Positions 7,888 to 26,474 of a stretch of DNA of 64,000 nucleotides are shown piece after piece. A program made the translations under genes and the position numbers. Every line of letters begins with the position of its first letter. Within the stretch, counting starts at the first letter, position 1. The notes under the pieces were generated by a model. The model did not search any database and was not told where the DNA came from. It saw nothing but the letters and a program-made list of their open reading frames with translations. Source of the DNA: Patescibacteria group bacterium (lineage in GTDB: Bacteria; Patescibacteriota; Patescibacteriia; Veblenbacterales; UBA10138); the NCBI GenBank assembly GCA_018817715.1, contig JAHITT010000006.1, forward strand, positions 11,147-75,146, written 5' to 3'.

Positions 7888-7961
7888 AGTTTAGCTACTT
7901 ATTTAATTAGGCAATTAAATCATTAAGGTCAGTGGGTGTTTGGGATTTATAAACTTACTTA

Positions 7962-13033: not shown

Positions 13034-14551
13034 ATGAAAAATGATAAGTTTATTATCGCTCGGGAATACGTAGTAAGCTTATTCCCGATTTTTCAGTTAG
13101 CGGATAGTTTTGGTGATTCTATTAAAAAAATAATTGGTACTTCTATTGGTGAATTTGCTGGTCGTCTAGAAGGGCATTCTATATGGTGGATAGCCAGGGA
13201 AAAGGGTTGGTTTCTTGGTCATCAGGCAGTTGTTAGTAGAATAAAAAACAATCCCCAATGGTTTAATAACATTTTGCAGCAAATAGAACAACAAGGTGGA
13301 GCTTTAGGTAGGTTATCTAAGAATTTAGCTAAGGGTCGCCTGGATAAAATTTCTAATCGGGAATTAGCTAATCGTTACTTGAATTTTTCTCAAAAGAATA
13401 CTCATTTATACGACTTAGGTTTGGTTTGTTCTTTGTTGGATTATCAGAATAATACTTATTTAAGTGATTCGGTTAATGGTATTTTATCTAAGAAATTATT
13501 AATTAAAAATATAAGCGAAGTTTTTACTCTGCTGACCACTTCTAGCCGGTTATGGCCCGATAAAGAACAGGAATTAAAATTGGTTGGAATCTATAAAAAA
13601 ATTATAACTCGTAAAATTTTAAAAGAACTTTTATTAGCCAAGAGTAGTTCAGATTTTTTATTAGATCTTTGGAAGATTGATAAGGATATTTATCATCTTT
13701 TGGTTAAACATGGTGATCGCTATGCTTATTTGACCTATGTTTATGAGGGGCCAGCTGTTGGTTTGGATTTTTATATTGATATTATGAAGAACTGGTTACT
13801 TAATAAATTAAAACCAGTTGATCTAAAGAAAAAGCAAACTAAGGATAAAAATAAATTAATTAAGGAACAAAAAAAATTATTAAGTAAGTTAAAATTATCA
13901 GCCGAAGAATTAGTTTTGATTAAATTTGCTCAGAAGGTTTCTTTTGTTAAGCCTTATCGTCGATTATTACAAAGCCAAGCTTATTATTATTTTGAACCTG
14001 TTTTGGCAGAAGTAGCTCGTCGATTGAATTTAACTTTAAGGCAAGTTCGTTATTTATTACCTCAGGAGGTCCAGAAAGGTTTATTAGTAGGTCGAGTATC
14101 GGTTGATTTAGTTAATACTAGAATTAAATCATGTGTCTATATTAACTTTAATGGTCAGAAGAGATTATTAATTGGTCGGTCAGCAATTAATTTTTGGAAA
14201 ACTGTTAAAAAAGAGCAAGAATTTATTAATCTTAAAAAAATTAAAGGTTCAACCGCTTATCCAGGAAAAATAAGCGGCCGGGTAGTTTTAGTTAATATGC
14301 CGGCTGATATGGTTAATATGAAATTAGGTGATATTTTAGTATCTTCAGCCACTAGCCCTAATCTTATGCCAGCTATTAGAAAGGCTGGTGCCATAGTGAC
14401 TGATGAAGGTGGTATAACCTGTCATGCAGCGATAGTCAGCCGAGAATTAAAAATACCTTGTTTGATTGGCACTAAAATAGCCACCAAAGTTTTAAAAACA
14501 GGTGACAAGGTTTTAGTTAATGCTACTGCAGGCGTGGTTTATAAAAAATAA
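13034..14551 (+). CDS. PEP-utilizing-enzyme mobile (phospho-His) domain protein, paralog 1. N-terminal alpha-rich domain of unknown function.
   Basis: C-terminal about 85 aa ...PGKISGRVVLV...GDILVSSATSPNLMPAIRKAGAIVTDEGGITCHAAIVSRELKIPCLIGTK is a PF00391-type swivelling His domain. It has the same architecture as the rifampin-phosphotransferase C-terminal part. Confidence 0.8.
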   Translation: MKNDKFIIAREYVVSLFPIFQLADSFGDSIKKIIGTSIGEFAGRLEGHSIWWIAREKGWFLGHQAVVSRIKNNPQWFNNILQQIEQQGGALGRLSKNLAKGRLDKISNRELANRYLNFSQKNTHLYDLGLVCSLLDYQNNTYLSDSVNGILSKKLLIKNISEVFTLLTTSSRLWPDKEQELKLVGIYKKIITRKILKELLLAKSSSDFLLDLWKIDKDIYHLLVKHGDRYAYLTYVYEGPAVGLDFYIDIMKNWLLNKLKPVDLKKKQTKDKNKLIKEQKKLLSKLKLSAEELVLIKFAQKVSFVKPYRRLLQSQAYYYFEPVLAEVARRLNLTLRQVRYLLPQEVQKGLLVGRVSVDLVNTRIKSCVYINFNGQKRLLIGRSAINFWKTVKKEQEFINLKKIKGSTAYPGKISGRVVLVNMPADMVNMKLGDILVSSATSPNLMPAIRKAGAIVTDEGGITCHAAIVSRELKIPCLIGTKIATKVLKTGDKVLVNATAGVVYKK

Positions 14552-14553
14552 TT

Positions 14554-16101
14554 ATGGCTATTATTTGGTGTAAAAATTTTGAAATACCTAGAGTGGATTT
14601 AAATATCTGTAGTGAATCGGCTATAGGTTTTCATACCTTACAATCCAAAACAGTCGGCCGGAATATAATTAACGAATCAATTTGGGTTTTTAAAAATTTG
14701 GACAATATTGGAACATATTTTTTCAAAAGACAATTAAGAAAAATAATAGAAAAAACCTTAAGTATTATTATAAATCAACCTGGCAAAATTGATATTCTTC
14801 ACCAAAAAACTATTCTTTATAATAAAAAATATTATATTTTTGCGGAAAAAATAAGAAAATTATCCTTAAAAAAGTTAACTACTAAACAACTTTTGTCTTG
14901 GCATAAAAAGCTTTTCTATTGGCAATATTTAAGCCATGGTTATAGTTTACCTACTACCTGGTTTGTGGATTCTGATGGTGAGGATCTTACCAAACATCTT
15001 ACAAGATTAATAAAAATGCGGATTGAGGAATTAGGTTTAACTTTATCATCGGCCGTAGTTTTTAGTAAATTAACAACTCCCACCAAACAGTCTTTGGCTC
15101 AGAAGGAGGAGTTAGAATCTTTAGCTATTTTAAAGTTAATAAAGAAACATAAATCTTTGGCTAAGAAATTATCTTATTTAAAAAAAACTACGAGCCTGTT
15201 AAGTTGGCTGGAGAGCTGCCCGAAAGCGTTAAATAAAGTTATTATAAAACATTATAAAAAATGGTGTTGGTTTCCTTATACTTATTTAGGGCCCGCTTAC
15301 TCCTTAGATTATTATTTGCAGGTTTGGCAGGGATTATTAAGAGAAAGGGTAAATTCAGATAGAGAGATTGCTAAAATAATAAGCCAATCAAAAAAGGCTC
15401 AAACAAAAAGAAGCCAGTTATTAAAAATTTTGAAGCCAGGTAACCACTTAAAACACCTGTTAATCATAGCTTCTGATATTGTTTGGCTTAAGGGTTATCG
15501 TAAGGATTGTTATTATCATGGTTTTTATGTTTTGGATATCTTATTAGCGGAGATTGCCCGGCGAACTAATTTATCTTTGTTACAAGTAAAATATTTATTA
15601 CCAGAAGAGTTGCCACTTTTATTGTTAGATAATAATAAAGATTGGGCGGATCTAGCCAATCAGCGGATGAAATTTTCTGTTTTATATCATAAAGATAGCC
15701 AGGTTAAAATTTTAGTAGGTAAAAAGGCTAAACAGTTTTTAAGTAAACGAAAATTTGAAAAAATATCAATTAAAAAAACTAAAGAAATATTGGGTACCTG
15801 CGCTTGTCCGGGTCAAGTTAGTGGTCGAGTTTGCTTAGTTAATATTCCAGCTGATATGGTAAAAATGAAAAAAGGGGACATTATGGTGTCTCACACTACT
15901 TACCCTGCTTTGATACCAGCCATGAAACTAGCGGCTGGTTTAATTACAGAAGATGGTGGGGTAACTTGCCATGCGGCTATAGTAGCCAGAGAGCTACAAA
16001 TTCCTTGTGTAGTTGGTACCAAAATAGCAGCTCAAGTTTTAAAAGATGGTGATAGAGTTGAAGTTCAAGCGGAGCAGGGGATAATTAAAGTCATTAAATA
16101 A
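14554..16101 (+). CDS. PEP-utilizing mobile-domain protein, paralog 2
   Basis: Same C-terminal motif (GGVTCHAAIVARELQIPCVVGTK). It shares the internal paralog motifs Y-x-Y-x-GP and K-x-YR-x(15)-LAE-x-ARR with the neighbouring genes. 3 bp intergenic gap. Confidence 0.8.
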   Translation: MAIIWCKNFEIPRVDLNICSESAIGFHTLQSKTVGRNIINESIWVFKNLDNIGTYFFKRQLRKIIEKTLSIIINQPGKIDILHQKTILYNKKYYIFAEKIRKLSLKKLTTKQLLSWHKKLFYWQYLSHGYSLPTTWFVDSDGEDLTKHLTRLIKMRIEELGLTLSSAVVFSKLTTPTKQSLAQKEELESLAILKLIKKHKSLAKKLSYLKKTTSLLSWLESCPKALNKVIIKHYKKWCWFPYTYLGPAYSLDYYLQVWQGLLRERVNSDREIAKIISQSKKAQTKRSQLLKILKPGNHLKHLLIIASDIVWLKGYRKDCYYHGFYVLDILLAEIARRTNLSLLQVKYLLPEELPLLLLDNNKDWADLANQRMKFSVLYHKDSQVKILVGKKAKQFLSKRKFEKISIKKTKEILGTCACPGQVSGRVCLVNIPADMVKMKKGDIMVSHTTYPALIPAMKLAAGLITEDGGVTCHAAIVARELQIPCVVGTKIAAQVLKDGDRVEVQAEQGIIKVIK

Positions 16102-16105
16102 AGAT

Positions 16106-17632
16106 ATGGCTAAATCTAAAATAAATTGGTTTTTGATAAATGAAAATTATGGGGCTAATTTATGTCCTTATATTTTTCATTTTGATGCTGATTATCACTT
16201 ATTCAAAAAAATATTGGGTCGGGGTATGAATTATCAAGGAGTAGGCACGGCCAAAGGTTTTTTGCGTCAAACTTATGATTTAACAGATTATAATAATTTT
16301 GCTGCTTTTGTATTTTTAAAATTAAAAAATGACAAAAAGTTTGCCCGAAAAATGCTTAAGAATATTTTTAAGGTCACTGGAAGTTTTCTTAAATTTAACA
16401 GGGAACTTTTGTCTCAAGATTTAAAAGATCTTACCGCCAGACAGTTAGTTGGTTTATTTAGAAAATTTTATGATAAGTTTGGCTTAATGAGTGCTTGGAG
16501 CGTGCCATTTGCTTTTACTGAGTACGGTACACCTTTATGGTCTAACAGTTTGTTAGAATATATTAACAGTAAAAAATTGTCGGTTGGAATGAGCGTTCAA
16601 GAAGTTTATCAATTATTAGTAGATACCAATAAAAAAACCTTTACAGCTTTAGAAAAAGAAAGTCTGTTAAGGTTAGCGACTATGGTAGTTAAGTCAAAAG
16701 GACTTAAAAAAGTTTTTAATCAGCCCATAAGCCAGATGAAGAAAATTTTGCAATCTGATTATCCATTATTTTATAAATACTTACACACCCATTATGTTAG
16801 TTTTAAATGGATAAATTTTGGCTTCGAAGGGCCAGTTTTAGATGAATTTTATTTTTTATCAGTTATTAAGGACTGGGTTTTTAATAAGAAGCCAGTTGAA
16901 GAGACAGTCAAGCGCAAAAAATACTTAGCTAGCTTAAAAAGTCGGCAGAATCAATTAATCAAAAAATTAAATATAGACAAAGAACATCAGTGGATGCTTT
17001 GGGTGGTTAGGGAATTTAGTTATCAGAAGGCTTATCGTAAAGATGTAGAATATCACAGCTATTATACTTATGATTTTTTATTAGCCGAATTAGCCAGACG
17101 TTTTGGTATGGCGGTTGATCAGGCACATTATTTATTAATGCCAGAAATAAAGGATATCTTATTGGGTAAGAAAAAAGTTAACATTAATGAACTTAATAAA
17201 AGGATGGAAAATAATTTTTATGTAGTTGTAAAAGGTAAGCCTAAATTGTTAGTTGGTCAGTCGGCGGCTAGGTTTGTTAAATTAATAAAAAAAAGAGATA
17301 AATCTAATAATACTAACAATTTATCTGGGCAATGTGCTTGTCCGGGTAAATATAAGGGAAGAATAAAAGTTATAAAAAATAAATCGGATTATACTAAGTT
17401 TAAAAAAGGTGATATTTTGGTAAGTTATGCCACTAATCCTAACATGGTGTCTTTAATGAAAATGGCTGGAGCTATAATAACGGACGAAGGTGGTGTCACC
17501 TGCCACGCCGCCATTGTTTCCAGAGAGTTGGGAGTTCCTTGTGTAATAGGCACCAGATTTGCCACCCAGGTTTTTAAGGATAATGATTTGGTGGAGGTGG
17601 ATGCCGTTAAGGGTACTGTTAAGAAAATTTAA
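16106..17632 (+). CDS. PEP-utilizing mobile-domain protein, paralog 3
   Basis: GGVTCHAAIVSRELGVPCVIGTR C-terminus and paralog motifs (FGFEGP, KAYRKD...LAELARR). Confidence 0.8.
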   Translation: MAKSKINWFLINENYGANLCPYIFHFDADYHLFKKILGRGMNYQGVGTAKGFLRQTYDLTDYNNFAAFVFLKLKNDKKFARKMLKNIFKVTGSFLKFNRELLSQDLKDLTARQLVGLFRKFYDKFGLMSAWSVPFAFTEYGTPLWSNSLLEYINSKKLSVGMSVQEVYQLLVDTNKKTFTALEKESLLRLATMVVKSKGLKKVFNQPISQMKKILQSDYPLFYKYLHTHYVSFKWINFGFEGPVLDEFYFLSVIKDWVFNKKPVEETVKRKKYLASLKSRQNQLIKKLNIDKEHQWMLWVVREFSYQKAYRKDVEYHSYYTYDFLLAELARRFGMAVDQAHYLLMPEIKDILLGKKKVNINELNKRMENNFYVVVKGKPKLLVGQSAARFVKLIKKRDKSNNTNNLSGQCACPGKYKGRIKVIKNKSDYTKFKKGDILVSYATNPNMVSLMKMAGAIITDEGGVTCHAAIVSRELGVPCVIGTRFATQVFKDNDLVEVDAVKGTVKKI

Positions 17633-17633
17633 T

Positions 17634-18848
17634 ATGCCTAAATACATAAAGCAATTAACCAGAGAGAATACTTTATTGGATAGGGCTTTTAGGACTATAG
17701 CTTATGCCAAAAGCCTTCCGGAAATAGGTCGGGCTAAAATAAAAAAAAGCCCCATAGTTGGTTTTGGTCGGGTGACTTCTTTGTATTATGATCCAGTGGA
17801 TTACAAAAAACAACAATCTATAATAATGAAAGAATTTTCTGGACAGAATATTAAGGTAATGTCCTATGAAATCATTAAGTATTTAGAGAAGGGTTATATT
17901 TGGGCCAAAAAAGTAAGTAACAACAGATTAACTAAAGCTGATTTGATTGATTTGATAAAAGATTTTAATTATTGCCACGCTCATGCCAGGGGAGCTATTG
18001 TTTATGGTTATTGGGGAGAACCAGTTATAACAAAATTATTAAAAAACAGTCTTAAAGTTAAAAAAGATAAATTAGATGAGATAGTGTCTGTTTTATCAAC
18101 TCCCCATAAAATAGCCGGCCCTTTAAACAAACTACATAAAACTTCTTCGTTTTTGTATCAAAAAAGAAACGAATTGATTAAATCTTTAAAGTTGACAGGT
18201 AGACAAAATGAATTAGTTGAGATTTTATCTTGGTTTACTTTATTTTATGAAATGGGCGAGAGGGTGTCTGGTTCTATATATAGTTTGCTTTTGAAAAAAA
18301 TTAACCAAATTTTAAAAAAAGATAAAATATATAAGGATATTGATTGGTACGATCCTCAATCTTTAATTACATATTTATCTAAAGGGAAAGCATTATCAAA
18401 GAAGGAATTAAGTAGCAGAAAAGTTTGTTATATATTATTTGTTAAAAAGGATGGGCTAAGAGTTATCAGCGGGCAGTCCGCTTTAAGACAATATAATAAA
18501 ATTTTCAAAGAAAAATTTAATACTAACGTTAGTTTGTTAAAAGGCACAGTGGCTTGCGCTGGCAATGCTAAAGGAAAAATTAAAATAGTGATAACCAAAC
18601 AAGATCAAGCGAAATTTAAACCAGGTGATATTTTAATTTCTACTATGACCACACCTAATTTAATGGGTGCCGTTAAAAAGGCTGCGGCTATAGTAACCGA
18701 TGAGGGTGGTATGACTGCTCACGCTGCCATAATTAGCCGAGAATTAAATATTCCTTGTTTGGTAGGTACTAAAGTAGCTACCAAAGTGTTTAAAGATGGA
18801 GATTTGGTGGAAGTAGATGCTAATAATGGTATAATTAAGAAAATTTAG
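17634..18848 (+). CDS. PEP-utilizing mobile-domain protein, paralog 4 (shorter, most divergent)
   Basis: The ATG at 17634 lies 2 nt after the paralog 3 stop, whereas the track ORF starts inside the upstream gene. C-terminus GGMTAHAAIISRELNIPCLVGTK. The N-domain is about 100 aa shorter than in the other paralogs. Confidence 0.7.
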   Translation: MPKYIKQLTRENTLLDRAFRTIAYAKSLPEIGRAKIKKSPIVGFGRVTSLYYDPVDYKKQQSIIMKEFSGQNIKVMSYEIIKYLEKGYIWAKKVSNNRLTKADLIDLIKDFNYCHAHARGAIVYGYWGEPVITKLLKNSLKVKKDKLDEIVSVLSTPHKIAGPLNKLHKTSSFLYQKRNELIKSLKLTGRQNELVEILSWFTLFYEMGERVSGSIYSLLLKKINQILKKDKIYKDIDWYDPQSLITYLSKGKALSKKELSSRKVCYILFVKKDGLRVISGQSALRQYNKIFKEKFNTNVSLLKGTVACAGNAKGKIKIVITKQDQAKFKPGDILISTMTTPNLMGAVKKAAAIVTDEGGMTAHAAIISRELNIPCLVGTKVATKVFKDGDLVEVDANNGIIKKI

Positions 18849-18852
18849 TCTT

Positions 18853-20379
18853 ATGTCTAAAAAATCATTAAACAATAAAGATGTTTGGATGTTGGCCGAA
18901 GATATTCCGGATATAGATTTATTTTTTGCTCAAATTTGGTTGTCGGCTTTTGTTAATGATATGTCTAAGTCAGTCGGGACTAATTATCAAGAAGTGATGT
19001 GTGTGTTTAAGGGTACCAACATCAAGTTTTATTATAAACAAAAAGACTCAGAAAGGTTTTCTAATCATGTTTTTAATTTAATTAAAAAAAGTCCGGCCTT
19101 TGGAGAAAAAATTAACAAACAAATCAAATTACATACGGATGGGTTGGTGGCTTTGGCGGAAGAAGTCAGGAAAATTAATCTTAAAAAATTAACTAATAAA
19201 GAATTGTGGCAGATTTGGCAAAAACATGATGATATCCATACAGAACTTTATATTTGGGGTTGGTTACCTAATGTTACAGATATGTTTCATAGTAACTTCA
19301 CTCATTATCTGCAATCTTATTTAAACAGTTGTGGGGTTGAAGAAGATTTAATTAATGAATATTTGGTAGTATTAACTAATCCTTCGGCCAAAAGCGTTAT
19401 AAATCAGGAAAGGGAGGAATTCTTAAAATTAGTTGAAGAAATAAAAAAGGTTAAGGCTTTTAAAAAACTTCTTAAATTATCGCCAAGCCAGTTTATAAAA
19501 AAATTACCACTTAGTCGCCGGGTGTTGCTACAGCGCCATTGGGAAAAGTGGCATCATTTAAAATATAATTTTATTGGACCTAAAGTAACAACCTTGGAAG
19601 AATATGCTGAAGAGATACAAAAATTATTATTAAGCGGGATTAATCCTTATAATTTATTAAAGCAAGAAGTAGAAAAAAGAGTTTTGTCTGTTAAAGAAAA
19701 AAATAAATTATTGGCTAAAATTAAACCAGATAAAAAGCATCTGGCCTTGTTTGAATTATGGGGCCATTTTATGTTGACTAAATTTTATAGGCGAAATGGT
19801 CAAATAAGAGCTGTAGCCATATTTAATAATTTATTAAAAGAAACAGCTAGAAGATTGGGTATTTCTTTATTACAAGTTAGGTTGATGTTGAATAGTCAGG
19901 TTAAACAAGGATTGCTTAATAAGAAGGTTAATAAAAAAACGCTTAAAAAACAGAGTCAGTTGGCTGTTTATTGGAGTGCTAAAAACCGGGAATATTTATA
20001 TATTGGAAATAAAGCACAAAAATTTATTAAGACTATACCGCAGGATGGTAATCATGAGGTCGCCGAGCTTAAAGGGCAGTGTGGTAGTTTAGGTAAAGCT
20101 AGTGGTACAGTTAAGTTAATTTTTAGACCGCGTGATATTCCTAAAATGTCTAAAGGCGACATATTGGTTTCGGCGGCTACTGATCCTGATATTGTGCCGG
20201 CTATGAAATTGGCGGGGGCTATTGTAACGGATCAAGGTGGTGTTACAGCTCATGCCGCCATTGTGGCGCGGGAATTAGGTATTCCGTGTTTAATTGGTAC
20301 CAAAATAGCCACTAAAGTTTTTAAAGATGGAGATAGGGTAGAGGTAGACGCTACCAAAGGGGTGGTTAAAAAGTTATAA
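18853..20379 (+). CDS. PEP-utilizing mobile-domain protein, paralog 5
   Basis: GGVTAHAAIVARELGIPCLIGTK C-terminus. Paralog motifs HLKYNFIGP and KFYRRN...LKETARRLG. Confidence 0.8.
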   Translation: MSKKSLNNKDVWMLAEDIPDIDLFFAQIWLSAFVNDMSKSVGTNYQEVMCVFKGTNIKFYYKQKDSERFSNHVFNLIKKSPAFGEKINKQIKLHTDGLVALAEEVRKINLKKLTNKELWQIWQKHDDIHTELYIWGWLPNVTDMFHSNFTHYLQSYLNSCGVEEDLINEYLVVLTNPSAKSVINQEREEFLKLVEEIKKVKAFKKLLKLSPSQFIKKLPLSRRVLLQRHWEKWHHLKYNFIGPKVTTLEEYAEEIQKLLLSGINPYNLLKQEVEKRVLSVKEKNKLLAKIKPDKKHLALFELWGHFMLTKFYRRNGQIRAVAIFNNLLKETARRLGISLLQVRLMLNSQVKQGLLNKKVNKKTLKKQSQLAVYWSAKNREYLYIGNKAQKFIKTIPQDGNHEVAELKGQCGSLGKASGTVKLIFRPRDIPKMSKGDILVSAATDPDIVPAMKLAGAIVTDQGGVTAHAAIVARELGIPCLIGTKIATKVFKDGDRVEVDATKGVVKKL

Positions 20380-20386
20380 TTTATTT

Positions 20387-21937
20387 ATGAAAAAGCAGCA
20401 AAATATTTATACTTTTAGTAATATTAAAAAAGTTAGGTGGGGGGTGCTGGAAGAAAATCAACCCATTCATCTTTTTCCAGTAATGTATCCTTGTTGGTGT
20501 GGTATTGTTAAGGATGTGGGGAAGATTTTAGGTAAACCACAAACTAACATCATCAACTTCAATCATTATGATAAAAGTACAATATTCATTGATCATGATG
20601 AGTGGAATAAATTAGGCCTTTTTACTTTGCGTAAAATTTTACGAGATCCTAAGTGGGGATTTTACATAAGTAAAAAAATTATCAAACTTTCTGATATTTT
20701 GACTAAGTTTACTAGTCAAAAAATACATAAAGTAGATTTAACCAAAAAAACTAATCAGCAATTATATCATTTGTACAAGGAGTATCTAGATAAAGATGTT
20801 GTTGCATATAATTATGCCGCCATACCTGTGTATTTGGATTTATATAAACCTCATTTAACAACATATTTATTAAAATATTTAGATAAGCTTATATCTAAAT
20901 TAGATTATAAAATGACAGCTCGGGAGTGTTTTGTTGGTTTAACTATGCCAGTTGGGTTATCTAAGGTACAAAACGAAGAACTTGATTTATATAAATTAAC
21001 CATCAAAATAAAATCATTTATCAAGAACAATAAATTACCAAAGCTTTCTCAATTATCTGGGAGGAGTTTAAATTTATTCAAAAAGCACACGGATAAATAT
21101 AGATACTTGGGTTATAATTGGGAAGGGCCGGCCTTTTCTGATTATTATTTTTGGAAAAGATTAGAAAATTTATTTAAAGATAAAGTCACTCCACAAACAA
21201 AAATTAAGGATTTTTTTGCCAATAAGAAAAAAGGTATAAGGCTAGCTGAAAAAATAAAGAAGGACTTACATATTGATAATAAACATAATAAGTTGTTGGA
21301 GCTGACTAAACATATAATTTATTCAAAAGAGTATCGAAAAATGGCTTTTGTACAGTCGTATTATGAGGTGGAGAAATTATTAAAGGAGATAGCTGATAGA
21401 TTGTCATTAAGTTTGGATGAAGTTAGGGTGAGCTTATTAACTGAAGTCAGATTAATGTTAACCAGCAAGCTAACCAGACCAAAAGAACTATCAGATAGAA
21501 TAGAGGGGCATTTATTTGTGGTTTTGAGCCAAAAATTACCTGGTCGGGTTTTTACGGATAATCTTTATTTAAAGACCAAGGAATATTTATTAAAGCGACA
21601 GGATTTACACGAAATTAATTATTTCCACGGGCAGACAGCTTGTTTAGGTAAAGCTGAGGGTCTAGTTAAAATAATTAATTCAGTTAAGGATATTGGAAAA
21701 ATGAGAAAAGGGGATATTTTAGTTTCTACTCAGACAAATCCTGATTTAGTACCAGCCATGCGTAAAGCAGCCGCTATAGTGACTGATTTAGGTGGTATAA
21801 CCTGCCACGCAGCTATTGTTTCCAGAGAATTAGGAATACCTTGTGTTATTGGTACTAAAGTGGCTACCAAAGTGCTTAAAGACGATGATAGGGTAGTGGT
21901 GGATGCTAGTAGAGGCGAGATTAAAAAGATTAATTAA
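20387..21937 (+). CDS. PEP-utilizing mobile-domain protein, paralog 6
   Basis: GGITCHAAIVSRELGIPCVIGTK C-terminus. Paralog motifs YLGYNWEGP and KEYRKM...LKEIADRL. Confidence 0.8.
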   Translation: MKKQQNIYTFSNIKKVRWGVLEENQPIHLFPVMYPCWCGIVKDVGKILGKPQTNIINFNHYDKSTIFIDHDEWNKLGLFTLRKILRDPKWGFYISKKIIKLSDILTKFTSQKIHKVDLTKKTNQQLYHLYKEYLDKDVVAYNYAAIPVYLDLYKPHLTTYLLKYLDKLISKLDYKMTARECFVGLTMPVGLSKVQNEELDLYKLTIKIKSFIKNNKLPKLSQLSGRSLNLFKKHTDKYRYLGYNWEGPAFSDYYFWKRLENLFKDKVTPQTKIKDFFANKKKGIRLAEKIKKDLHIDNKHNKLLELTKHIIYSKEYRKMAFVQSYYEVEKLLKEIADRLSLSLDEVRVSLLTEVRLMLTSKLTRPKELSDRIEGHLFVVLSQKLPGRVFTDNLYLKTKEYLLKRQDLHEINYFHGQTACLGKAEGLVKIINSVKDIGKMRKGDILVSTQTNPDLVPAMRKAAAIVTDLGGITCHAAIVSRELGIPCVIGTKVATKVLKDDDRVVVDASRGEIKKIN

Positions 21938-21941
21938 ATAT

Positions 21942-23474
21942 ATGAAGTATCAGTTATTACATCAAGAAACTTCTGTTACACCTCTAACTTTGGGTATGAA
22001 TCACCGGGGATTTCATCATCGCCTGCATACGAAATATACTAGACCTTTTTATTTTAAAGATAGCGTAATTGTTTATAAAAATTATAAGGTTGATTGGTAT
22101 GGTGATATAGATAATTTTTGTGAACTGGGTCAAAAAGTTATTGATAATGTTAAAAAAGACAAAACATTTAGCAAGCGTTTGTTATTAGATGTGGTTAAGA
22201 TTGGACAAGAGTTAGATGAATTGGATAGCATAATAATTAGTGAAAATTTTGCACGATTGACAAAACTAAATTTGCTAAATCAATTTAAAAAATTATTTAA
22301 ATTGTCTTATGATATTTGTGATTTGGGTGCAGTAGCAGTTTATCCTGATTTAAGACATTATAAATTATCAACATTACTTAAGAATATTATTAAGGAAAAA
22401 ATAGTTAAATACAATTTACCTAGAAAAACTAATGACTACTTTTCAATATTAATTACACCTACAATTACTGGTTTGGTGCAGCGGGAAAAGAATGTCATAC
22501 AAGAATTAGCAATTGAAATTCAGAGAGATAAAGCGCTAAAAAATGATTGGCTTAGGTTGAAAGCTAAAGACGTTTTAAAGAAACAAGCAGGCCACCTGCA
22601 CAAAACTATTGATAGTTTATATAAATTATATAGTAATTATCGATGGTCAGCTTTTGGGCAATTAGGGCCAAGTAAAACATTGGATGATTATATCGTTGAC
22701 ATAAAAAGCGAAATAAAAAATCCAATTTTAAAAAAACAAATATTAGAAGCTAAAAAACATTTAAATCAGATATTTAAACTTCAAAATTTATATTATAAAG
22801 AACTTCGTTTGACTAAAGTAGAAATTAACCTGTTTAAAGCGGCTCGAGATTTTAGTGAAAACAAGGTTTATAGATTTGATATTTTACTTAAAACTTGGTT
22901 AGCACTTGATTTGCTTTTGAGAGAAATTGCCAACAGAACAAAATATACGGTTAATGATTTAAGATTTATGTCTCCAGAGGAGATTGTTAGTTTATTAACT
23001 GGTCGGAAAATAATTCCAATTAGTATAATTAAAAATAGGCAAAAATTTTGTTTGACACTTATTAAGAATAATTCAATTATCCATTTAACAGGGGAGCAAG
23101 CCAAATCATACCTACGCCATAATATAGAAGCGGAAAATATTCAAAATAACATTAAGACATTGCATGGTAGTGTGGCTTATATGGGTCGGGTTAGCGGACG
23201 AGTAAAAATAGTTAATAGTCCTAAGGATATTAGTAAGGTTAAAAAAGGAGATATTTTAGTTTCTACTCAGACAAATCCAGATTTATTGCCGGCCATGCGA
23301 AAAGCTGGAGCTTTTGTAACTGATGTAGGTGGTATAACCTCCCATGCTGCTATTGTGGCTAGGGAATTAAAGAAACCTTGTATAATAGGTACAAAGATTG
23401 CTAGTAAAATATTTAAAGATGGTGATAGAGTAGATGTAGATGCTATTAAAGGTAATGTAACATTAATTAAATAA
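21942..23474 (+). CDS. PEP-utilizing mobile-domain protein, paralog 7
   Basis: Start moved to the ATG at 21942, after the TAA at 21935-21937. C-terminus GGITSHAAIVARELKKPCIIGTK, with the canonical TSH form of the catalytic His motif. Confidence 0.75.
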   Translation: MKYQLLHQETSVTPLTLGMNHRGFHHRLHTKYTRPFYFKDSVIVYKNYKVDWYGDIDNFCELGQKVIDNVKKDKTFSKRLLLDVVKIGQELDELDSIIISENFARLTKLNLLNQFKKLFKLSYDICDLGAVAVYPDLRHYKLSTLLKNIIKEKIVKYNLPRKTNDYFSILITPTITGLVQREKNVIQELAIEIQRDKALKNDWLRLKAKDVLKKQAGHLHKTIDSLYKLYSNYRWSAFGQLGPSKTLDDYIVDIKSEIKNPILKKQILEAKKHLNQIFKLQNLYYKELRLTKVEINLFKAARDFSENKVYRFDILLKTWLALDLLLREIANRTKYTVNDLRFMSPEEIVSLLTGRKIIPISIIKNRQKFCLTLIKNNSIIHLTGEQAKSYLRHNIEAENIQNNIKTLHGSVAYMGRVSGRVKIVNSPKDISKVKKGDILVSTQTNPDLLPAMRKAGAFVTDVGGITSHAAIVARELKKPCIIGTKIASKIFKDGDRVDVDAIKGNVTLIK

Positions 23475-23476
23475 AT

Positions 23477-24082
23477 ATGATTAAGCTTATTATTTTTGAT
23501 TTGTATGGTCTTATATTAAGTTCGGGTTATCCAGATACTTCCAAATATCTGGCTAAGAAGTTTGGTGGAGATTGGCGGGATTATCAGGCCATAATATATA
23601 AAAAGTATTTTAACCAGGCGGCGGTACGACAAATAACTCAAAAACAGGCTTGGGTTTTGGCGGCTAAAGAATTAAAGTTACCGATTTCTTGGCAGGAGTT
23701 AAGAAAAATACATTATAAACTAATGACCTTGGATAAGCGGTTGGTTAAGTTAGATAAGGAATTAAACAAAAAAGGTTATATTACTTTAGTGCTTTCCAAG
23801 AATACCCGTAGTCAATTGGCCGATAACTGTAAGCGTTTTGGAATTAAAAAAATATTTAAAAATGTGATTAATACTTGGGAACTTAATTTACCTAAAGCCA
23901 GTAAAAAAACATTGGCCTTGGTTTTAAAGCGTTTTAAGGTTAAGCCGGAAGAGGTTATTTATGCGGATGATCAAAAGGCTAATTTAGTAGACGCTAAAGA
24001 AATGGGCATTAAAACAATTTTTGTTAAGAATTATCAGCAGTTTAAAAAAGAATTGGATGGTTATCTTTCTTATGATAAATAA
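23477..24082 (+). CDS. HAD-superfamily hydrolase-like protein (non-canonical motif I)
   Basis: N-terminal LIIFDLYGLIL is a HAD motif-I position but reads D-L-Y rather than DxD. C-terminal IYADDQKANLVDAKEMGIKTIFV is HAD motif-IV-like. 201 aa, embedded in the paralog array. Confidence 0.5.
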   Translation: MIKLIIFDLYGLILSSGYPDTSKYLAKKFGGDWRDYQAIIYKKYFNQAAVRQITQKQAWVLAAKELKLPISWQELRKIHYKLMTLDKRLVKLDKELNKKGYITLVLSKNTRSQLADNCKRFGIKKIFKNVINTWELNLPKASKKTLALVLKRFKVKPEEVIYADDQKANLVDAKEMGIKTIFVKNYQQFKKELDGYLSYDK

Positions 24083-24107
24083 ATTTAAAGAAAAAGGTTG
24101 GCGTTTA

Positions 24108-25568
24108 ATGTCTCAACGACAAAGGTTAAGCCCTTTCCCTAACTATATGTCTATGGAAGCTATGACGGGTTTAGTTAAGGAGTATGTTGGTGAAAATATA
24201 GATTGGCTGGTTTTATTTTTTGAAGACAGGATAATGAATGGGTTTAGTCCGTCTAAATCTTTTTTTGCTTCAGCTAATGATATTGTGAATAGGCTGGAGA
24301 ATAATCCTGGTATTTATGCTGATTTAATTAAAAAGCAGAATTATTGGGGAAAAAAATTGGTTAAACACGCTAAATTGAGTTTTAATAAAGTAGATAGTAC
24401 AAGTACGGCTCGAGATTTGTATAATTTTTGGATGAATTTTGAACGTATTTATAAACAGGTTTATGCTACTTATGGATCAGTTTGGATGATAGAGGATGTT
24501 TTTAATAATCGTTTATTACAGATAGTTAAAGAAAGGATTAGTAATGAAGTAAAATCTGTGGAGTTGCTTAATCTTTTGACATTACAACCAAAAGCTATGG
24601 TAGCGAGATTGGAAAAACAGGCTTTGTTAGAAGTGGCTGTTAAAATAGGTATTCGTTCTGGTTGGCGGCAGCAAGTTTTAAAAGGCAATTTTAAATCATT
24701 TGATAAAGGTTTAGTTGCTTTGATAGTTAAACACGAACGTGATTATTTTTGGGTAACTAGGGATTATGAGGATCCTATTTTGGACAAAGAAAGGATTATC
24801 AGCAAACTAAAAGACGTTTTACGAGAGAATTATAAAACTAACTTATTAGCCATGAAAAAAGAGTTGGTTAAATGGCGACAGCAGCAAGATTTTTTGACAA
24901 AGAAATTGCAATTGACTAATAAGGAAAAAAAGTTATTCTCGGCTATGCAGGATGTAGCTTACTTGAAGGAATTACGTAAGCATTATGTTTCAGAATCTTT
25001 ATATTATTTTGATAGGGTCTTATTGGAAATCGGCCGCCGTAGTTGTTTAAGTATTAAACAAGTTAGATTTTTAAAAACAGAAGACTTAAGCAGTGTTTTA
25101 TTTAGTAAAAAAGATTTTAGTAAAACAATTAATGATAGAATAAAATTATCTGTTTGGATAAGTCATCAAGGTAAAACAAAAGTAATAACTGGTAAAAAGG
25201 CTGAAATTTTAAAGAAAAAATTTATTCAAAAACCAAAAAATCTTTTGGAATTTATAGGTACCCCGGTGAGTCCTGGCAAAGCCCGTGGTCCAGTTAAAAT
25301 AGTATTGAATCCAGATGAGTGTTCTAAGGTTAAAAAAGGGGATATTATCGTTAGTATTCAAGTCGTGCCTAGTTTTTCAGCAGCCATTCAACGAGCGGCT
25401 GGTTTAATTTGCGATGGTGGACATGGCATTACTACTCATCCTGCTATTTTAGCTAGAGAAGCTAAAATTCCAGCAATTATTCAAACTAGGTTTGCTCGAG
25501 AAGTTTTAAAAGATGGTGATATAGTGGAGGTTGATGGTTATAAAGGTATGGCAAGAAAAATAAAATAA
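24108..25568 (+). CDS. PEP-utilizing mobile-domain protein, paralog 8 (divergent)
   Basis: The ATG at 24108 lies after the HAD gene stop at 24082. C-terminus GGHGITTHPAILAREAKIPAIIQTR with the His retained. Paralog motif KELRKH...LLEIGRR. Confidence 0.7.
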   Translation: MSQRQRLSPFPNYMSMEAMTGLVKEYVGENIDWLVLFFEDRIMNGFSPSKSFFASANDIVNRLENNPGIYADLIKKQNYWGKKLVKHAKLSFNKVDSTSTARDLYNFWMNFERIYKQVYATYGSVWMIEDVFNNRLLQIVKERISNEVKSVELLNLLTLQPKAMVARLEKQALLEVAVKIGIRSGWRQQVLKGNFKSFDKGLVALIVKHERDYFWVTRDYEDPILDKERIISKLKDVLRENYKTNLLAMKKELVKWRQQQDFLTKKLQLTNKEKKLFSAMQDVAYLKELRKHYVSESLYYFDRVLLEIGRRSCLSIKQVRFLKTEDLSSVLFSKKDFSKTINDRIKLSVWISHQGKTKVITGKKAEILKKKFIQKPKNLLEFIGTPVSPGKARGPVKIVLNPDECSKVKKGDIIVSIQVVPSFSAAIQRAAGLICDGGHGITTHPAILAREAKIPAIIQTRFAREVLKDGDIVEVDGYKGMARKIK

Positions 25569-25596
25569 ACCCTCTTTAAGAGGGTTTATTTTATTA
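25567..25596 (+). terminator. rho-independent terminator hairpin (likely bidirectional)
   Basis: AAACCCTC/GAGGGTTT 8 bp stem followed by ATTTTATT. It lies between the convergent ends of paralog 8 (+) and the histidine phosphatase gene (-). Confidence 0.55.
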
Positions 25597-25610: not shown

Positions 25611-26474
25611 CTAAATTTCAGTTGCTATTTTTTCTATATTTTTACCTACGGGCTTAGCTTTTTTCTTATTTTGTCCATAAAAATCCAGCCTCACCCCTTC
25701 GGCATTTTCCACTTCGCCAACTTTTTCTAAAGGAATATTTAATTCATCAGCTACTATTAAGGAAGTCATTGAAGCGTGGCTATTGGCAATGTAAACTATT
25801 CTTTTTTCTTGACCTTTGTTAGACAACCAATCAGCTATTTTTTCCACTTTAGCCATATCAATATTTTTTCTTTTTAACATTTGGCTTTTAGTTTCAACTG
25901 CTGTAGGAATTTCATCATCTGGTGTTAAAGCCCAAGCCACAATTTCATCTTTGGCTCCTAATTTTTCTTGGTAAGAAGTATCTCCCAATTTTTTTCTAAA
26001 ATCTGGCTCATGTTCAATACCTTGAATACCTTTTAATCTTTTTTCTACACCCGGCCCAGCTTCGGTTGGTATATTTTCTCCTTTCCATTCATAGGCGCTC
26101 TTTGGTAAGTCTATTTGGTCAGGCCTAGCGCCCAGTTCAATTAAAGTATCATTCATTACCCAGTCTTGCTCGCAAGTGCGATCAGTTTTTGAATCACGAA
26201 TAAATAACTTTATTTTATCTAAGGATTTTTGTAAAACTTCGGCATAGGCTTGTTTGTTGTTCCAATCTTTAAAATCCGATTGTTCGTCGCTTATAATCTG
26301 TTTGGCAATATTAGTAATGGTTTCTTTTACTTGTTCACGACCCTTATCAGTTAAACCTCGTTTGGGATTAGTTTTATCTTTACCAGATTCGCCGTGACGG
26401 ATAAGATAAACAGTTATATTTGGTTGTTCTTTTAATACTTCTTTGGATTCTGTAAATAATTGTTTTTCATTCAT
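25611..26474 (-). CDS. histidine phosphatase superfamily (PGAM/SixA-like) protein
   Basis: N-terminal YLIRHGESGKD (RHG catalytic motif) and a downstream ANSHASM second-His motif. 287 aa. Confidence 0.6.
   Translation of the reverse strand: MNEKQLFTESKEVLKEQPNITVYLIRHGESGKDKTNPKRGLTDKGREQVKETITNIAKQIISDEQSDFKDWNNKQAYAEVLQKSLDKIKLFIRDSKTDRTCEQDWVMNDTLIELGARPDQIDLPKSAYEWKGENIPTEAGPGVEKRLKGIQGIEHEPDFRKKLGDTSYQEKLGAKDEIVAWALTPDDEIPTAVETKSQMLKRKNIDMAKVEKIADWLSNKGQEKRIVYIANSHASMTSLIVADELNIPLEKVGEVENAEGVRLDFYGQNKKKAKPVGKNIEKIATEI

Follow-up and report, generated by a model that had tools for sequence, protein, structure and literature searches.

The eight paralogous genes considered here, which lie in a 64,000-nucleotide stretch of Patescibacteria DNA (the window), probably form the substrate side of a one-to-many split small-molecule dikinase of the rifampin phosphotransferase (RPH)/PpsAB/HpeHI kind, a reading to which we assign a probability of roughly 0.65. 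The system would most likely be a so far undescribed one-to-many variant of a known two-part kinase, in which phosphotransfer would take place in trans, one ATP-grasp protein would serve all copies and the copies would act on distinct substrates. The array makes sense because its proteins lack an ATP-grasp domain and one ATP-grasp gene lies nearby, a point that the original prediction missed. The observations from which this reading is drawn are domain content, folds, motif correspondence, gene neighbourhood, fusions and purifying selection. Labelling the array genes 'PEP synthase' would wrongly imply gluconeogenesis.

Array layout, motifs and predicted folds

The paralogs (P1–P8) lie on one strand and span 13034–25568, with a HAD gene preceding the last copy. 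All eight ORFs are intact and separated by spacers of 1–12 nt, and the array proteins were matched on three independent contigs. PF00391 (PEP-utilizers, swivel domain) is the sole Pfam domain in each of the eight, occupies the final ~100 residues and scores 58–93 bits, above the gathering threshold of 23.1 bits; the Pfam scan found no ATP-grasp or PEP-binding domain in P1–P8. We call the combination of a RIF-binding-domain-like N-domain and a phospho-His swivel domain an N-S module. Public annotation lists the array genes as 'PEP-utilizing enzyme' or 'hypothetical protein', and the NCBI deposit of P5 includes a truncated 365-aa version.

13034–14551, + strand: P1, N-S module, 505 aa, T-C-H-A (PF00391 at residues 432–500; N-domain homologous to other copies)
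14554–16101, + strand: P2, N-S module, 515 aa, T-C-H-A (PF00391 and N-domain homology)
16106–17632, + strand: P3, N-S module, 508 aa, T-C-H-A (PF00391, NF004881)
17634–18848, + strand: P4, short N-S module, 404 aa, T-A-H-A (PF00391; AF2 model; own orthogroup)
18853–20379, + strand: P5, N-S module, 508 aa, T-A-H-A (PF00391; AF2 model)
20387–21937, + strand: P6, N-S module, 516 aa, T-C-H-A (PF00391 and N-domain homology)
21942–23474, + strand: P7, N-S module, 510 aa, T-S-H-A (PF00391 and N-domain homology)
23477–24082, + strand: HAD-IA phosphatase within the array, 201 aa (PF13419, E = 1e-14)
24072–25568, + strand: P8, N-S module of 'post-HAD' type, 498 aa, variant G-H-G-I-T-T-H-P (PF00391; L004_e)

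Pairwise identity among the eight paralogs averages 54% (range 41–64) in the swivel domain (last 105 aa) versus 21% (range 15–27) in the ~400-aa N-region, and the C-terminal domain holds 25 of the 29 invariant columns of the paralog alignment, which bears out the original prediction of a constant C-terminal swivel joined to strongly diverged N-domains. Seven copies have homologous N-domains in BLASTP with the N-domain only, with E-values to 1e-24 (database size 1e9). Among the proposed anchors, the Pro of [GD]-P is indeed invariant across the paralogs, and K-x-Y-R...L-x-E-[IT]-[AG]-x-R is present in seven of the eight copies (as K-E-L-R in P8) and missing from P4. P8 stands apart as described, with its G-H-G-I-T-T-H-P loop, the most divergent swivel (41–47% identity) and a position behind the HAD gene. 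Cys precedes the His in only four copies (P1, P2, P3 and P6), not in most of them, and P4 and P5 carry T-A-H-A, which falls outside the T-[CS]-H-A pattern given before. Nor is Cys non-canonical at this place: Neisseria PEP synthase (2OLS) reads T-C-H-A-A, the normal bacterial PEP-synthase motif, and the published consensus GGxT[S/C]HAA also allows it (PMC12167813).

All of P1–P8 keep the catalytic His and the GG loop without change, together with a Thr two residues before the His. PEP synthase, PPDK and EI have this Thr as well and use it as a site of regulatory phosphorylation; RPH and HpeH have Met at that position. Because the array has Thr and not Met here, its swivel is nearer to PEP synthase than to the characterized two-component dikinases. 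With P4 lacking K-x-Y-R and P8 having an altered His loop, identical chemistry in all eight copies is not required.

AlphaFold2 models of P5 and P4 are confident (pLDDT 91.6 and 94.0, respectively). The top Foldseek match of the P5 model is RPH-Lm (5FBU, E = 3.7e-14), and the P4 model matches RPH-Lm over its whole length (E = 5.5e-14), with TMq of 0.53–0.58 across the two; all remaining PDB matches cover the swivel domain alone. Because both models match RPH-Lm end to end, the array N-domain is predicted to be the counterpart of the substrate (rifampin)-binding domain of RPH. In the family profile, K-x-Y-R[RK] falls on R666-E667-Y-P-K670 of RPH by profile alignment, not structural superposition; in the same alignment, basic residues occur at or near RPH positions 666 and 670 in seven of the eight paralogs and the position aligned with Glu667 is variable. 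The second phosphotransfer of RPH requires both R666 and E667 (PMC4844700). K310, E330 and R334 (P5 numbering) are invariant across 52 family members. The suggestion that each protein joins a specificity domain to an unvarying catalytic handle is supported by the structural match to RPH and the K-x-Y-R alignment. Scores against the NCBIfam RPH models stay far below the cutoffs, at 50–72 bits for NF041857 (cutoff 999) and 32–51 bits for NF000283 (cutoff 1700). The paralogs align to only the C-terminal half (~450–890) of NCBIfam RPH, PigC and PRK06241-type models; P3 residues 80–506, for example, align to 450–888 of 898 in NF004881, an RPH-type 'PEP synthase' model.

P4 was thought to have lost about 100 N-terminal residues. 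Its start is in fact intact: the ATG at 17634 agrees with the orthologs (alternatives lie at 17601 and 17559), and the model keeps the N-terminal strand–helix–strand–strand element of P5. The ~100-residue gap is internal in the alignment, over the helical region bearing the GP motif, so that P4 has the same fold minus an internal helical subdomain and the K-x-Y-R and L-x-E-x-A-x-R motifs, and within its N-region the alignment to other paralogs is confined to the final ~120 aa. More than 40 P4 orthologs of 405–412 aa share 45–63% identity and have invariant residues of their own; on sequence grounds, P4 is a member of its own conserved orthogroup and no local accident.

Orthologs, evolutionary rate and composition

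We compared the array with a census of related loci, 83 in all, in Patescibacteria and DPANN archaea. The description of the array as rapidly evolving and hypervariable is not supported. For seven of the eight paralogs, other genomes hold unmistakable orthologs (41–84% identity), and these are much more similar to them than the paralogs in the same genome are. Best ortholog identities (full-length or N-domain) are 64% for P1, 47% for P2, 47% for P3, 63% for P4, 75% for P5, 84% for P6 and 44% for P8; P7 reaches 75% in close relatives and only 25–27% in more distant genomes. P1 has orthologs in L002 (64%) and L006 (39%), P2 in L006_a (47%) with ortholog-level matches in 16 other loci, and P3 in P0064 (47% N-domain identity). 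The P6 ortholog in L002 is 84% identical with an N-domain dN of 0.12. For P7, P0001 is an identical 510-aa gene product, further orthologs have 46–67% identity and that in L002 is truncated to 257 aa. The P8 ortholog L004_e (41%) likewise lies behind a HAD gene and likewise has H-P after Thr/Ser, and ortholog-level matches to P8 occur in 8 loci.

Against the syntenic locus L002, the array N-domains are 60–82% identical with a dN of 0.12–0.29, equal to or lower than the dN of rseP, sod and sufC (0.26–0.29). Whole-gene identities to L002 are 64–84% for the array, 66% for rseP, 67% for frr, 64% for sod and 65% for sufC. The array genes are thus conserved like their housekeeping neighbours, and such purifying selection was the first of two signs, a lack of pocket-lining variability being the second, that the original prediction had named together as speaking against itself. 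Swivel identity is 81–94% between orthologs versus 41–64% within the genome; the swivels cluster by ortholog and not by genome, and there is therefore no concerted evolution. Searches of the array for gene-conversion tracts, near-identical DNA tracts and DGR-like repeats found none. The P5 type is the most widespread orthogroup, occurring in 80 species genomes of Patescibacteria and DPANN archaea. In its N-domain, 43 positions show conservation of 90% or more among 37 orthologs, only 11 of these 43 are common to other window paralogs, and 23 P5-type-specific positions cluster at residues 1–25, 126–150 and 300–325, the last of which flanks K-x-Y-R. Such orthogroup-specific conservation agrees with what may be fixed, different specificities. 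Most likely, the array consists of old conserved paralogs and not of fast-evolving ones.

The claim that the array is richer in A/T and Lys codons holds for GC (0.317 versus 0.366 in other window genes; Mann–Whitney p = 5e-4) and for Lys content (12.9% versus 8.0%). It does not hold for Lys codon choice, as AAA/AAG usage does not differ from that of the other genes (p = 0.19). Because the GC deficit is seen at the first, second and third codon positions and the choice between AAA and AAG is unchanged, it largely reflects a Lys-rich protein composition. The low GC of the array is not evidence of foreign origin.

The ATP-grasp gene and a proposed split dikinase

The array is flanked by frr–rseP upstream and sod–suf downstream, an arrangement that is syntenic in L002. 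Immediately downstream lie the following features.

25559–25595, no strand assigned: palindromic hairpin in the convergent gap between P8 and a histidine-phosphatase gene, 17-bp stem followed by a T-run, terminator-like on both strands by consensus match only
25611–26474, − strand: histidine-phosphatase superfamily protein with RHG motif, 287 aa (PF00300 weak, E = 1.6e-4)
26585–27298, − strand: histidine-phosphatase superfamily protein, 237 aa (PF00300, E = 4e-6)
27514–28461, + strand: stand-alone ATP-grasp protein (PPDK_N), 315 aa, proposed shared ATP-binding subunit (PF01326 over the whole protein, E = 1.2e-97)

The ATP-grasp gene sits 2 kb downstream of the array. Its product is intact, stops exactly at the domain boundary, aligns to HpeI (9GOJ, E = 1e-49) and is 86% identical to its L002 ortholog with a dN of 0.08, which makes it the best-conserved gene of the neighbourhood relative to L002, mreB excepted. 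The ATP-grasp and swivel domains both give their top scores to PEP-synthase models and structures (NF005057; 8A8E, E = 3e-47 with the swivel profile). The PF02896 TIM-barrel is absent from P1–P8 and all other scanned window ORFs. To judge by consensus matches only, the ATP-grasp gene seems to be transcribed on its own, divergently from the phosphatase genes. The 287-aa histidine phosphatase has faint SixA similarity (22 bits versus a cutoff of 74.5) and homologs adjoining arrays in L004, L011 and L019; the array HAD protein is 79% identical to its L002 ortholog.

Across the 83 loci, N-S copies number 1–10 and stand-alone ATP-grasp genes 0 or 1, never 2, giving ATP-grasp to N-S ratios from 1:1 to 1:10, with 1:8 in the window. 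The combination of array, HAD gene and single ATP-grasp gene recurs in the independent genomes L002, L004 and L006. HAD genes are present in 14 related loci, and RHG-type phosphatases are neighbours in 24 of the 83 loci and in 13 of the 24 loci that carry four or more copies. An ATP-grasp gene is within reach in just 14 of the 31 loci having full 10-kb flanks, and most single-copy DPANN loci show none in their flanks; in such loci, the gene may lie elsewhere in the genome or the N-S proteins may not always depend on it. Rare fusions join the same parts: G-N-S in L064 and L085, a 716-aa N-S-HAD in L013 and [N-S][N-S][G][N-S] in one 1615-aa Woesearchaeota ORF. L065 holds a complete PEP synthase (PF02896) plus a separate stand-alone ATP-grasp gene beside an N-S gene; the stand-alone ATP-grasp protein is therefore not a PEP-synthase fragment.

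In the proposed mechanism, the single ATP-grasp protein would take ATP, and the swivel of any N-S protein would dock on it so that its His receives the beta-phosphate, with conversion of ATP to AMP and Pi. The swivel would then return to its own N-domain, where the basic K-x-Y-R site (~RPH R666...K670) would position the phosphate for transfer to a substrate held in the helical cleft. Each paralog, as an old and separately conserved orthogroup, would presumably have its own substrate, and the swivel would stay similar owing to the chemistry common to all copies and probably also to their docking on one ATP-grasp partner. The HAD and histidine phosphatases probably serve a later dephosphorylation in the pathway or a reset of the system. 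The predicted need for both components in ATP-dependent phosphorylation has support only of an indirect kind, from the gene neighbourhood and the fusions.

It is conceivable, if rather unlikely, that the N-S proteins work independently of the ATP-grasp protein, as trans-phosphorylases or phospho-carriers using phosphorylated metabolites or another donor, with the neighbouring ATP-grasp gene loosely linked or serving just some copies. In its favour, HpeH by itself uses 4-phosphoacetophenone as a phosphate donor for acetovanillone (PMC12167813), no ATP-grasp gene occurs within 10 kb in roughly half of the loci with full flanks or in most archaeal loci with a single copy, the window's ATP-grasp gene seems to be transcribed separately, and two phosphatase kinds accompany the arrays. 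However, the N-S proteins lack a domain for binding PEP or any other donor, the G-N-S and [N-S][N-S][G][N-S] fusions are known, and the ATP-grasp gene is repeatedly found next to arrays in widely separated lineages and is as strongly constrained as its dN of 0.08 indicates. The array could also be a set of RPH-like enzymes for resistance or detoxification, with one antibiotic or xenobiotic per N-domain, in keeping with the resistance-enzyme arrays raised in the original prediction. This reading would concern the substrates only and be compatible with the split-dikinase mechanism; we consider it improbable. RPH is the sole solved structure that matches P5 and P4 whole-length, its relatives have been proposed to make up a wide group of small-molecule dikinases, for some of which antibiotics are the substrates (PMC4844700), rph-like genes were counted in a CPR resistome survey (PMC8651080), and copy number varies among close relatives (eight versus three full and one truncated). 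Yet identity to RPH is 14–16% at 32–72 bits (cutoffs 999 and 1700), conservation of the P5 type in Patescibacteria and DPANN archaea resembles that of a core gene, the locus is syntenic and housekeeping in character with array genes evolving no faster than their neighbours, and the characterized split relatives serve catabolism and not resistance. The related notion of toxin, receptor or defence arrays finds no support: with a limit of E <= 1e-3, PADLOC returned no family for any of the eight paralogs or for the ATP-grasp and HAD proteins, and the surroundings of the array are conserved and housekeeping in character.

An arms-race array, with N-domains still subject to rapid or diversifying selection, might be read from the ~21% identity of the paralog N-domains, the more than 4000 clusters at 50% identity, the 115 of 222 copies in other loci that fit none of the eight window types and the locus-to-locus variation in copy number. 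This very unlikely reading is largely refuted by an N-domain dN that does not exceed that of rseP, sod and sufC, by orthologs recognizable across phyla (across domains for the P5 type) and by the lack of concerted evolution, near-identical tracts and DGR-like repeats in the array. Decaying PEP synthase/RPH fragments, that is pseudogenes or an assembly artefact, would suit the database labels and the truncated P5 deposit, but hardly the eight intact and closely spaced ORFs with proteins on three contigs, the conserved orthologs, the confident P5 and P4 models or an ATP-grasp gene terminating precisely at its domain boundary; we give this reading next to no credence and reject it on conservation and purifying selection.

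Comparison with known systems

The split dikinase proposed here is closest in organization to HpeHI (Rhodococcus), CreHI (Corynebacterium) and phenylphosphate synthase PpsAB (Thauera/Aromatoleum), in which a separate ATP-grasp protein and a RIF-BD-like/swivel protein form an ATP-dependent dikinase that works via His~P in a transient complex (PMC12167813). These enzymes are an experimental precedent for the split, and since their components form no stable complex, one shared partner is feasible. The likeness lies in the separate ATP-grasp protein (~35–40 kDa in the known systems) and in the RIF-BD-like domain with a C-terminal swivel His (T/SxxGGxxxH). The known systems, in contrast, are 1:1 gene pairs in aromatic-catabolism clusters, with substrate subunits (PpsA/HpeH/CreH) of ~70 kDa and about 45% mutual identity, whereas the array has one ATP-grasp gene for eight paralogs of ~58 kDa (up to 10 elsewhere), a PEP-synthase-like Thr in place of Met two residues before the His, reduced-genome Patescibacteria and DPANN hosts, and linked HAD and histidine phosphatases. 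PRK08296 (~570–630 aa proteins with a C-terminal swivel) is a family that we take to be of the PpsA type. Its NCBIfam models match only the last ~105–130 residues of the paralogs, the swivel, at 44–103 bits versus cutoffs of 578–730, and the array substrate domain is therefore a separate lineage.

RPH of Listeria monocytogenes (5FBS/5FBT/5FBU/5HV1) resembles the array in its order of substrate domain and swivel, its whole-length structural match to P5 and P4 and the place of its basic phosphotransfer motif (R666...K670 versus K-x-Y-R[RK]), and its residues 4–316 cover the window ATP-grasp protein end to end. It differs in being one chain (G-N-S), whereas the paralogs lack ATP-grasp, in its 14–16% identity to them and in Glu667, which is not conserved in the array; nothing in this locus indicates rifamycin as a substrate. 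PEP synthase (PpsA; pyruvate, water dikinase) shares the GGxT[S/C]HAA loop including the regulatory-site Thr, but the array has a helical RIF-BD-like domain N-terminal to the swivel instead of the PF02896 PEP/pyruvate barrel, scores 69–139 bits against PEP-synthase models (below cutoffs of 598–740) and, in L065, coexists in its split form with the genuine enzyme. PigC and RedH models span the N-domain and swivel of several paralogs and also the ATP-grasp protein (P3 residues 188–506 align to 546–880 of 883 in a PigC/RedH-type model). The prodigiosin ligases PigC, RedH and HapC are nevertheless single-chain enzymes whose phosphorylation drives condensation in pigment biosynthesis; array scores of 39–76 bits (cutoffs 1300–1350) and the absence of a pigment-pathway context set the array apart from them.

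Composition of the array

The array at 13034–25568 (+) comprises nine same-strand, closely packed ORFs, with spacers of 1–12 nt and one pair overlapping by 11 nt. Eight of them encode paralogs of 404–516 aa (P1–P8), each consisting of an N-domain followed by a C-terminal phospho-histidine swivel domain, and the array and its downstream neighbours are arranged as follows.

13034–25568 (+): P1–P8
between P7 and P8, within the array: HAD-IA phosphatase, 201 aa
25611–26474 (−) and 26585–27298 (−): two histidine-phosphatase-superfamily genes, between the array and the ATP-grasp gene
27514–28461 (+): stand-alone ATP-grasp protein, 315 aa, 2 kb downstream of the array; PF01326 at E = 1.2e-97 and no other domain

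The swivel domain (PF00391) is the sole Pfam domain of each paralog and occupies its last ~100 residues (58–93 bits against a cutoff of 23.1). In a MAFFT alignment of the eight paralogs, 25 of the 29 invariant columns lie in the C-terminal domain, and mean pairwise identity is 54% (41–64) over the last 105 residues versus 21% (15–27) over the remainder, which bears out the original prediction of a conserved swivel domain joined to strongly diverged N-domains. The N-domains could have turned out not to be homologous; however, BLASTP with N-domains alone unites those of seven copies (best E = 1e-24 at a database size of 1e9). The sequence comes from a metagenomic contig (ENA ERZ27247128), and for P5 a 365-aa truncated version is deposited at NCBI as "Patescibacteria group bacterium" (locus tag KKC17_03165).

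The array was also expected to be rich in A/T and in lysine codons. Its composition agrees (GC 0.317 versus 0.366; Lys 12.9% versus 8.0%), but GC is shifted at all three codon positions and AAA/AAG usage is unchanged, so that the composition mainly reflects lysine-rich proteins. A foreign origin, as low GC might suggest, was rejected because the array is syntenic in a relative, shares the same lysine-codon usage and is matched in AT-richness by other genes of the window. A promoter scan returned 76 sites versus 75.9 in shuffled sequence, so operon statements are based solely on the spacing of genes. At 25559–25595, overlapping the P8 stop codon and facing the convergent phosphatase gene, lies a perfect palindromic hairpin (17 bp, flanked on each side by a T-run) that looks like a bidirectional terminator.

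Across the window, nearly all genes lie on the forward strand, GC skew is positive in almost every 1-kb interval, and cumulative skew climbs steadily to 11.1, which fits a strongly strand-biased leading-strand region of the kind reported for some Microgenomates genomes (PMC7143001). Two cell-envelope glycan clusters are present, one at 280–9245 (GT4/GT2 glycosyltransferases and two Wzy-like O-antigen-ligase-family proteins around mreB) and one at 42035–51204 (a Bac_transf priming transferase, three GT4 genes, an 851-aa DUF4012 protein and MurJ). The ORFs at 58961–60418 (485 aa) and 37063–37569 (−) (168 aa) had no Pfam match at E <= 1e-4.

Predicted active-site motifs and the stand-alone ATP-grasp gene

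The loop before the swivel histidine reads T-C-H-A in P1, P2, P3 and P6, T-A-H-A in P4 and P5, T-S-H-A in P7 and T-T-H-P in P8. Cysteine before the catalytic histidine, previously ascribed to most copies and taken as non-canonical, thus occurs in half of them, and it is also found in Neisseria PEP synthase (2OLS, T-C-H-A-A) and allowed by the published PEP-synthase consensus GGxT[S/C]HAA (PMC12167813). More informative than the cysteine is the threonine two residues before the histidine, which is invariant in all paralogs; the same position is a regulatory phosphosite in PEP synthase, PPDK and EI, and is Met in rifampin phosphotransferase (RPH) and in HpeH of the two-component dikinase HpeHI (PMC12167813). 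The divergent loop of P8 and its placement behind the HAD gene were correctly described, as alignment and gene order agree.

The N-domains belong to a family with no Pfam model and no characterised member; a profile search returned 4074 clusters at 50% identity, 776 of them at E <= 1e-30. Against NCBIfam models of the RPH, PigC/RedH and PRK06241-type "PEP synthase" families, the paralogs align to the C-terminal half of ~870-aa enzymes (P3 residues 80–506, for example, match model positions 450–888 of 898). Among structure matches to the P5 and P4 models, those other than the Listeria monocytogenes enzyme (RPH-Lm) covered the swivel domain only, a result that has also been published for HpeH (PMC12167813). 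In a profile of 52 family members, the K-x-Y-R anchor aligns with RPH R666-E667-Y-P-K670, and K310, E330 and R334 (P5 numbering) are invariant in 52/52 sequences. The second phosphotransfer of RPH needs R666 and E667, with K670 in the same hydrogen-bond network (PMC4844700). Because of this correspondence and the invariant residues, the motifs first noted merely as anchors are likely to form a second active site, a prediction made from sequence.

P4 had been thought to lack about 100 N-terminal residues, but its gap (~100 residues) is internal and corresponds in the alignment to the helical region bearing the [GD]-P motif; its AlphaFold2 model (pLDDT 94.0) starts with the same strand-helix-strand-strand element as the P5 model. 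The P4 orthogroup (>40 proteins of 405–412 aa, 45–63% identity) has its own invariant residues and lacks K-x-Y-R, and profile comparison ties only the last ~120 residues of its N-region to the family. The placement of P4 is settled by its orthologs and fold. The chemistry of P4, without K-x-Y-R, and of P8, with its altered histidine loop, may differ from that of the other copies.

As judged from their sequences, none of the eight paralogs is able to bind ATP. The nearby ATP-grasp protein aligns end to end with RPH-Lm residues 4–316, with the isolated RPH ATP-grasp construct (5HV6) and with HpeI (9GOJ); its nucleotide-site motifs are intact, and its C-terminus, "QSRPITTL", coincides with the domain boundary. 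The PEP-binding domain PF02896 was absent from every scanned ORF of the window. Both intervening histidine phosphatases show a faint likeness to the phosphohistidine phosphatase SixA (19–22 bits against a cutoff of 74.5).

Recurrence and conservation of the family

Context look-ups for homologs found the module again in three further genomes.

L002/L003, a syntenic relative: rseP, three full copies and one truncated copy, HAD, ATP-grasp gene, then Rrf2-sod-suf
L004: five copies, HAD, ATP-grasp gene
L006 (GCA_021788015.1): eight or nine copies, HAD, ATP-grasp gene

A P5-type N-domain alignment searched against species-representative genomes yielded 80 loci, spread over numerous Patescibacteria lineages and DPANN archaea (Micrarchaeota, Woesearchaeota, Nanoarchaeota). 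An HMM-based count over the full set of 83 non-duplicate loci, which is biased to P5-type loci by its P5-orthogroup seed, gave 0–10 swivel-bearing copies per locus (>=4 in 24 loci), HAD genes in 14 loci, and 0 or 1 stand-alone ATP-grasp gene, never 2; with full flanks, 14/31 loci carry this gene. RHG-type relatives of the window's histidine phosphatases recur beside arrays in 24 loci and are enriched with array size, from 2/33 loci with <=1 copy through 9/26 with 2–3 copies to 13/24 with >=4.

Gene fusions tie the parts of the system together. ATP-grasp, N- and swivel domains are joined in that order in L064 (815 aa) and L085 (900 aa), an N-domain–swivel–HAD fusion occurs in L013 (716 aa), and a Woesearchaeota ORF of 1615 aa contains two N-domain–swivel modules, an ATP-grasp domain and a third such module. 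In L065, a true PEP synthase with PF02896 is found together with a separate stand-alone ATP-grasp gene adjoining an N-domain–swivel gene.

Several other observations concern these loci. In a Woesearchaeota MAG (L082, 6896–15567), giant ORFs of 1250 and 1615 aa appear as chained modules as called, with the ATP-grasp domain embedded between modules in the second, and multi-module proteins of 1000–2309 aa as called (e.g. P0049, P0050) are among the representative-search matches. Shorter swivel proteins (322–373 aa, N-region ~235–270 aa), common in other arrays (L006, L011, L014, L020, L025, L035, L051, L053, L067, L071, L079, L081), constitute a further module class: only their last ~80 N-region residues match the family profile (hhalign probability 95%), and no relationship to P4 is detectable, the P4 N-region having no BLAST match to them. 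Arrays also occur in TPA records titled "uncultured Gammaproteobacteria" (L013, L014, L021, L025, L026, L071, L087) or "Methanosarcinales archaeon" (L010, L024, L027, L056); these labels are probably wrong, the arrays being typical of Patescibacteria/DPANN. In one case (Micrarchaeota, L007, 3067–5347), a lone P5-type gene and a gene for a cupin-type glucose-6-phosphate isomerase (PF06560) are arranged tail-to-tail.

Identity of each paralog to its orthologs
P1: 64% (L002), 39% (L006)
P2: 47%
P3: 47%
P4: 63%
P5: 75%, 45%, 46%
P6: 84%
P7: 75% (L002); 46–67% (close database relatives)
P8: 41–44%; orthologs likewise follow a HAD gene and carry H-P

The N-domains had been proposed to be evolving rapidly, a view at odds with the orthologs: for 7/8 paralogs the ortholog is far closer than any paralog in the same genome. 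P7 is the least clear of them: more distant genomes hold three ortholog-level matches to it, with N-domain identity of only 25–27%. Selection was assessed on ortholog pairs with L002 because ~21% N-domain identity among paralogs puts synonymous sites far past saturation. The array genes are 64–84% identical to those of L002 (N-domains 60–82%, dN 0.12–0.29), compared with identities of 66% for rseP, 67% for frr, 64% for sod, 65% for sufC and 43% for holB among the flanking genes. Omega is well below 1 everywhere (0.03–0.23) but rough, as dS is saturated (pS 0.6–0.84), so the firm result is dN and identity relative to the flanking genes. Ongoing diversifying selection, which the divergence among paralogs had suggested, is therefore largely refuted, and the notion that the copies are pseudogene fragments is refuted. 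The swivel domains cluster by ortholog (81–94%) and not by genome (41–64%), and the sole DNA repeats are the 300-nt swivel-coding 3' ends (64–74% identity), so that there is no concerted evolution, and gene conversion and a DGR were rejected as mechanisms. The repertoire differs among relatives (8 copies versus about 4), and 115 of the 222 copies at other loci fall outside the eight window types. The array is best read as part of a large and ancient multigene family whose members were gained and lost in particular lineages, each member being under purifying selection.

Variable sites were assessed in one dimension, as positions conserved within an orthogroup and not between paralogs. In the P5 type, 43 N-domain positions are >=90% conserved in 37 orthologs, only 11 of them common to other window paralogs, and 23 type-specific positions cluster at residues 1–25, 126–150 and 300–325, the last flanking K-x-Y-R. 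Such a pattern would be expected if the types had different specificities that are fixed.

A proposed one-to-many dikinase

In HpeHI, CreHI and PpsAB, a separate ATP-grasp protein and a swivel protein with a domain like the rifampin-binding domain of RPH (RIF-BD) phosphorylate a small molecule via His~P without a stable complex (PMC12167813). From what was observed (domain content and folds, the motif correspondence, gene linkage and fusions, and selection), we infer a dikinase of this kind arranged one-to-many, involving trans-phosphorylation, a shared ATP-grasp protein and diverse substrates. The single ATP-grasp protein would bind ATP and charge the swivel histidine of each paralog; the swivel domain would return to its own N-domain, where the bound substrate would receive the phosphate at the K-x-Y-R site. 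Conservation of the swivel domain would reflect the shared chemistry and, presumably, a common docking partner. The HAD and histidine phosphatases would probably remove phosphate from downstream products or reset the carriers; in the Hpe pathway, phosphorylation is a transient activation (PMC12167813).

Such hub-and-spoke kinases, in which one ATP-grasp "charger" would load the swivel histidines on as many as ten distinct substrate modules, dedicated HAD and histidine phosphatases would close the phosphorylation cycles and the whole may stand in for missing kinases, remain a tentative reading, to which we assign a probability of about 0.4. With one shared charger, a single nucleotide-binding protein would provide a cell of very small genome with many ATP-dependent phosphorylations, and the system, widespread in Patescibacteria and DPANN archaea, may replace conventional small-molecule kinases absent in these lineages (sugar, nucleoside or cofactor salvage). 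The only hint to substrates is the gene neighbourhood, which may point to nucleotide or cofactor salvage: after the suf/cysteine-desulfurase genes, 34420–39037 encodes a PfkB sugar/nucleoside kinase, an APH-like kinase, two phosphoribosyltransferase (PRTase)-like genes and a LOG/"lysine decarboxylase"-family gene, the L004 array has a similar set (APH, PRTases, PRPP synthase, LOG, carbohydrate kinase) immediately upstream, and L002 has a PRTase between its HAD and ATP-grasp genes.

The paralogs may act instead as trans-phosphorylases independent of any ATP-grasp partner, as HpeH alone exchanges phosphate and many loci have no ATP-grasp gene within 10 kb; the shared charger draws on the ATP-grasp gene that does accompany the array here and in L002, L004 and L006. 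An RPH-like resistance battery would concern the substrates only, and sits poorly with core-like conservation and housekeeping synteny. A defence system was rejected, PADLOC giving no match.

The split architecture and chemistry are already known, and a survey of the CPR resistome merely counted rph-like hits (PMC8651080). We found no description of such arrays in CPR or DPANN in the openly searchable literature (subscription journals lay outside its scope), where five features appear undescribed: the 1:N arrangement, the separate N-domain lineage without a Pfam model or full-length PpsA-type match, the PEP-synthase-like swivel domain retaining the regulatory Thr, the genetic association with HAD and histidine-phosphatase genes, and the restriction to Patescibacteria and DPANN. 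Genomes of these groups are among the smallest known, and a large part of their metabolism is unexplained. The array, which devotes ~12.5 kb of a 531-kb contig to eight paralogs from a single enzyme family, is a large, conserved and uncharacterised investment for so small a genome. Such genes are currently annotated as "PEP synthase", "PEP-utilizing enzyme" or rph-like resistance genes, labels that can give false inferences on gluconeogenesis or resistomes in CPR genomes. The proposal is directly testable, as all parts are soluble proteins of 200–520 aa and assays are available for both HpeHI and RPH. Should a single ATP-grasp protein serve many modules, dikinases would be seen to follow a new principle of organisation, one that multiplies kinase specificities economically. 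The array resembles HpeHI, CreHI and PpsAB in its split ATP-grasp and RIF-BD-like/swivel proteins, whereas it would differ from them in being one-to-many.
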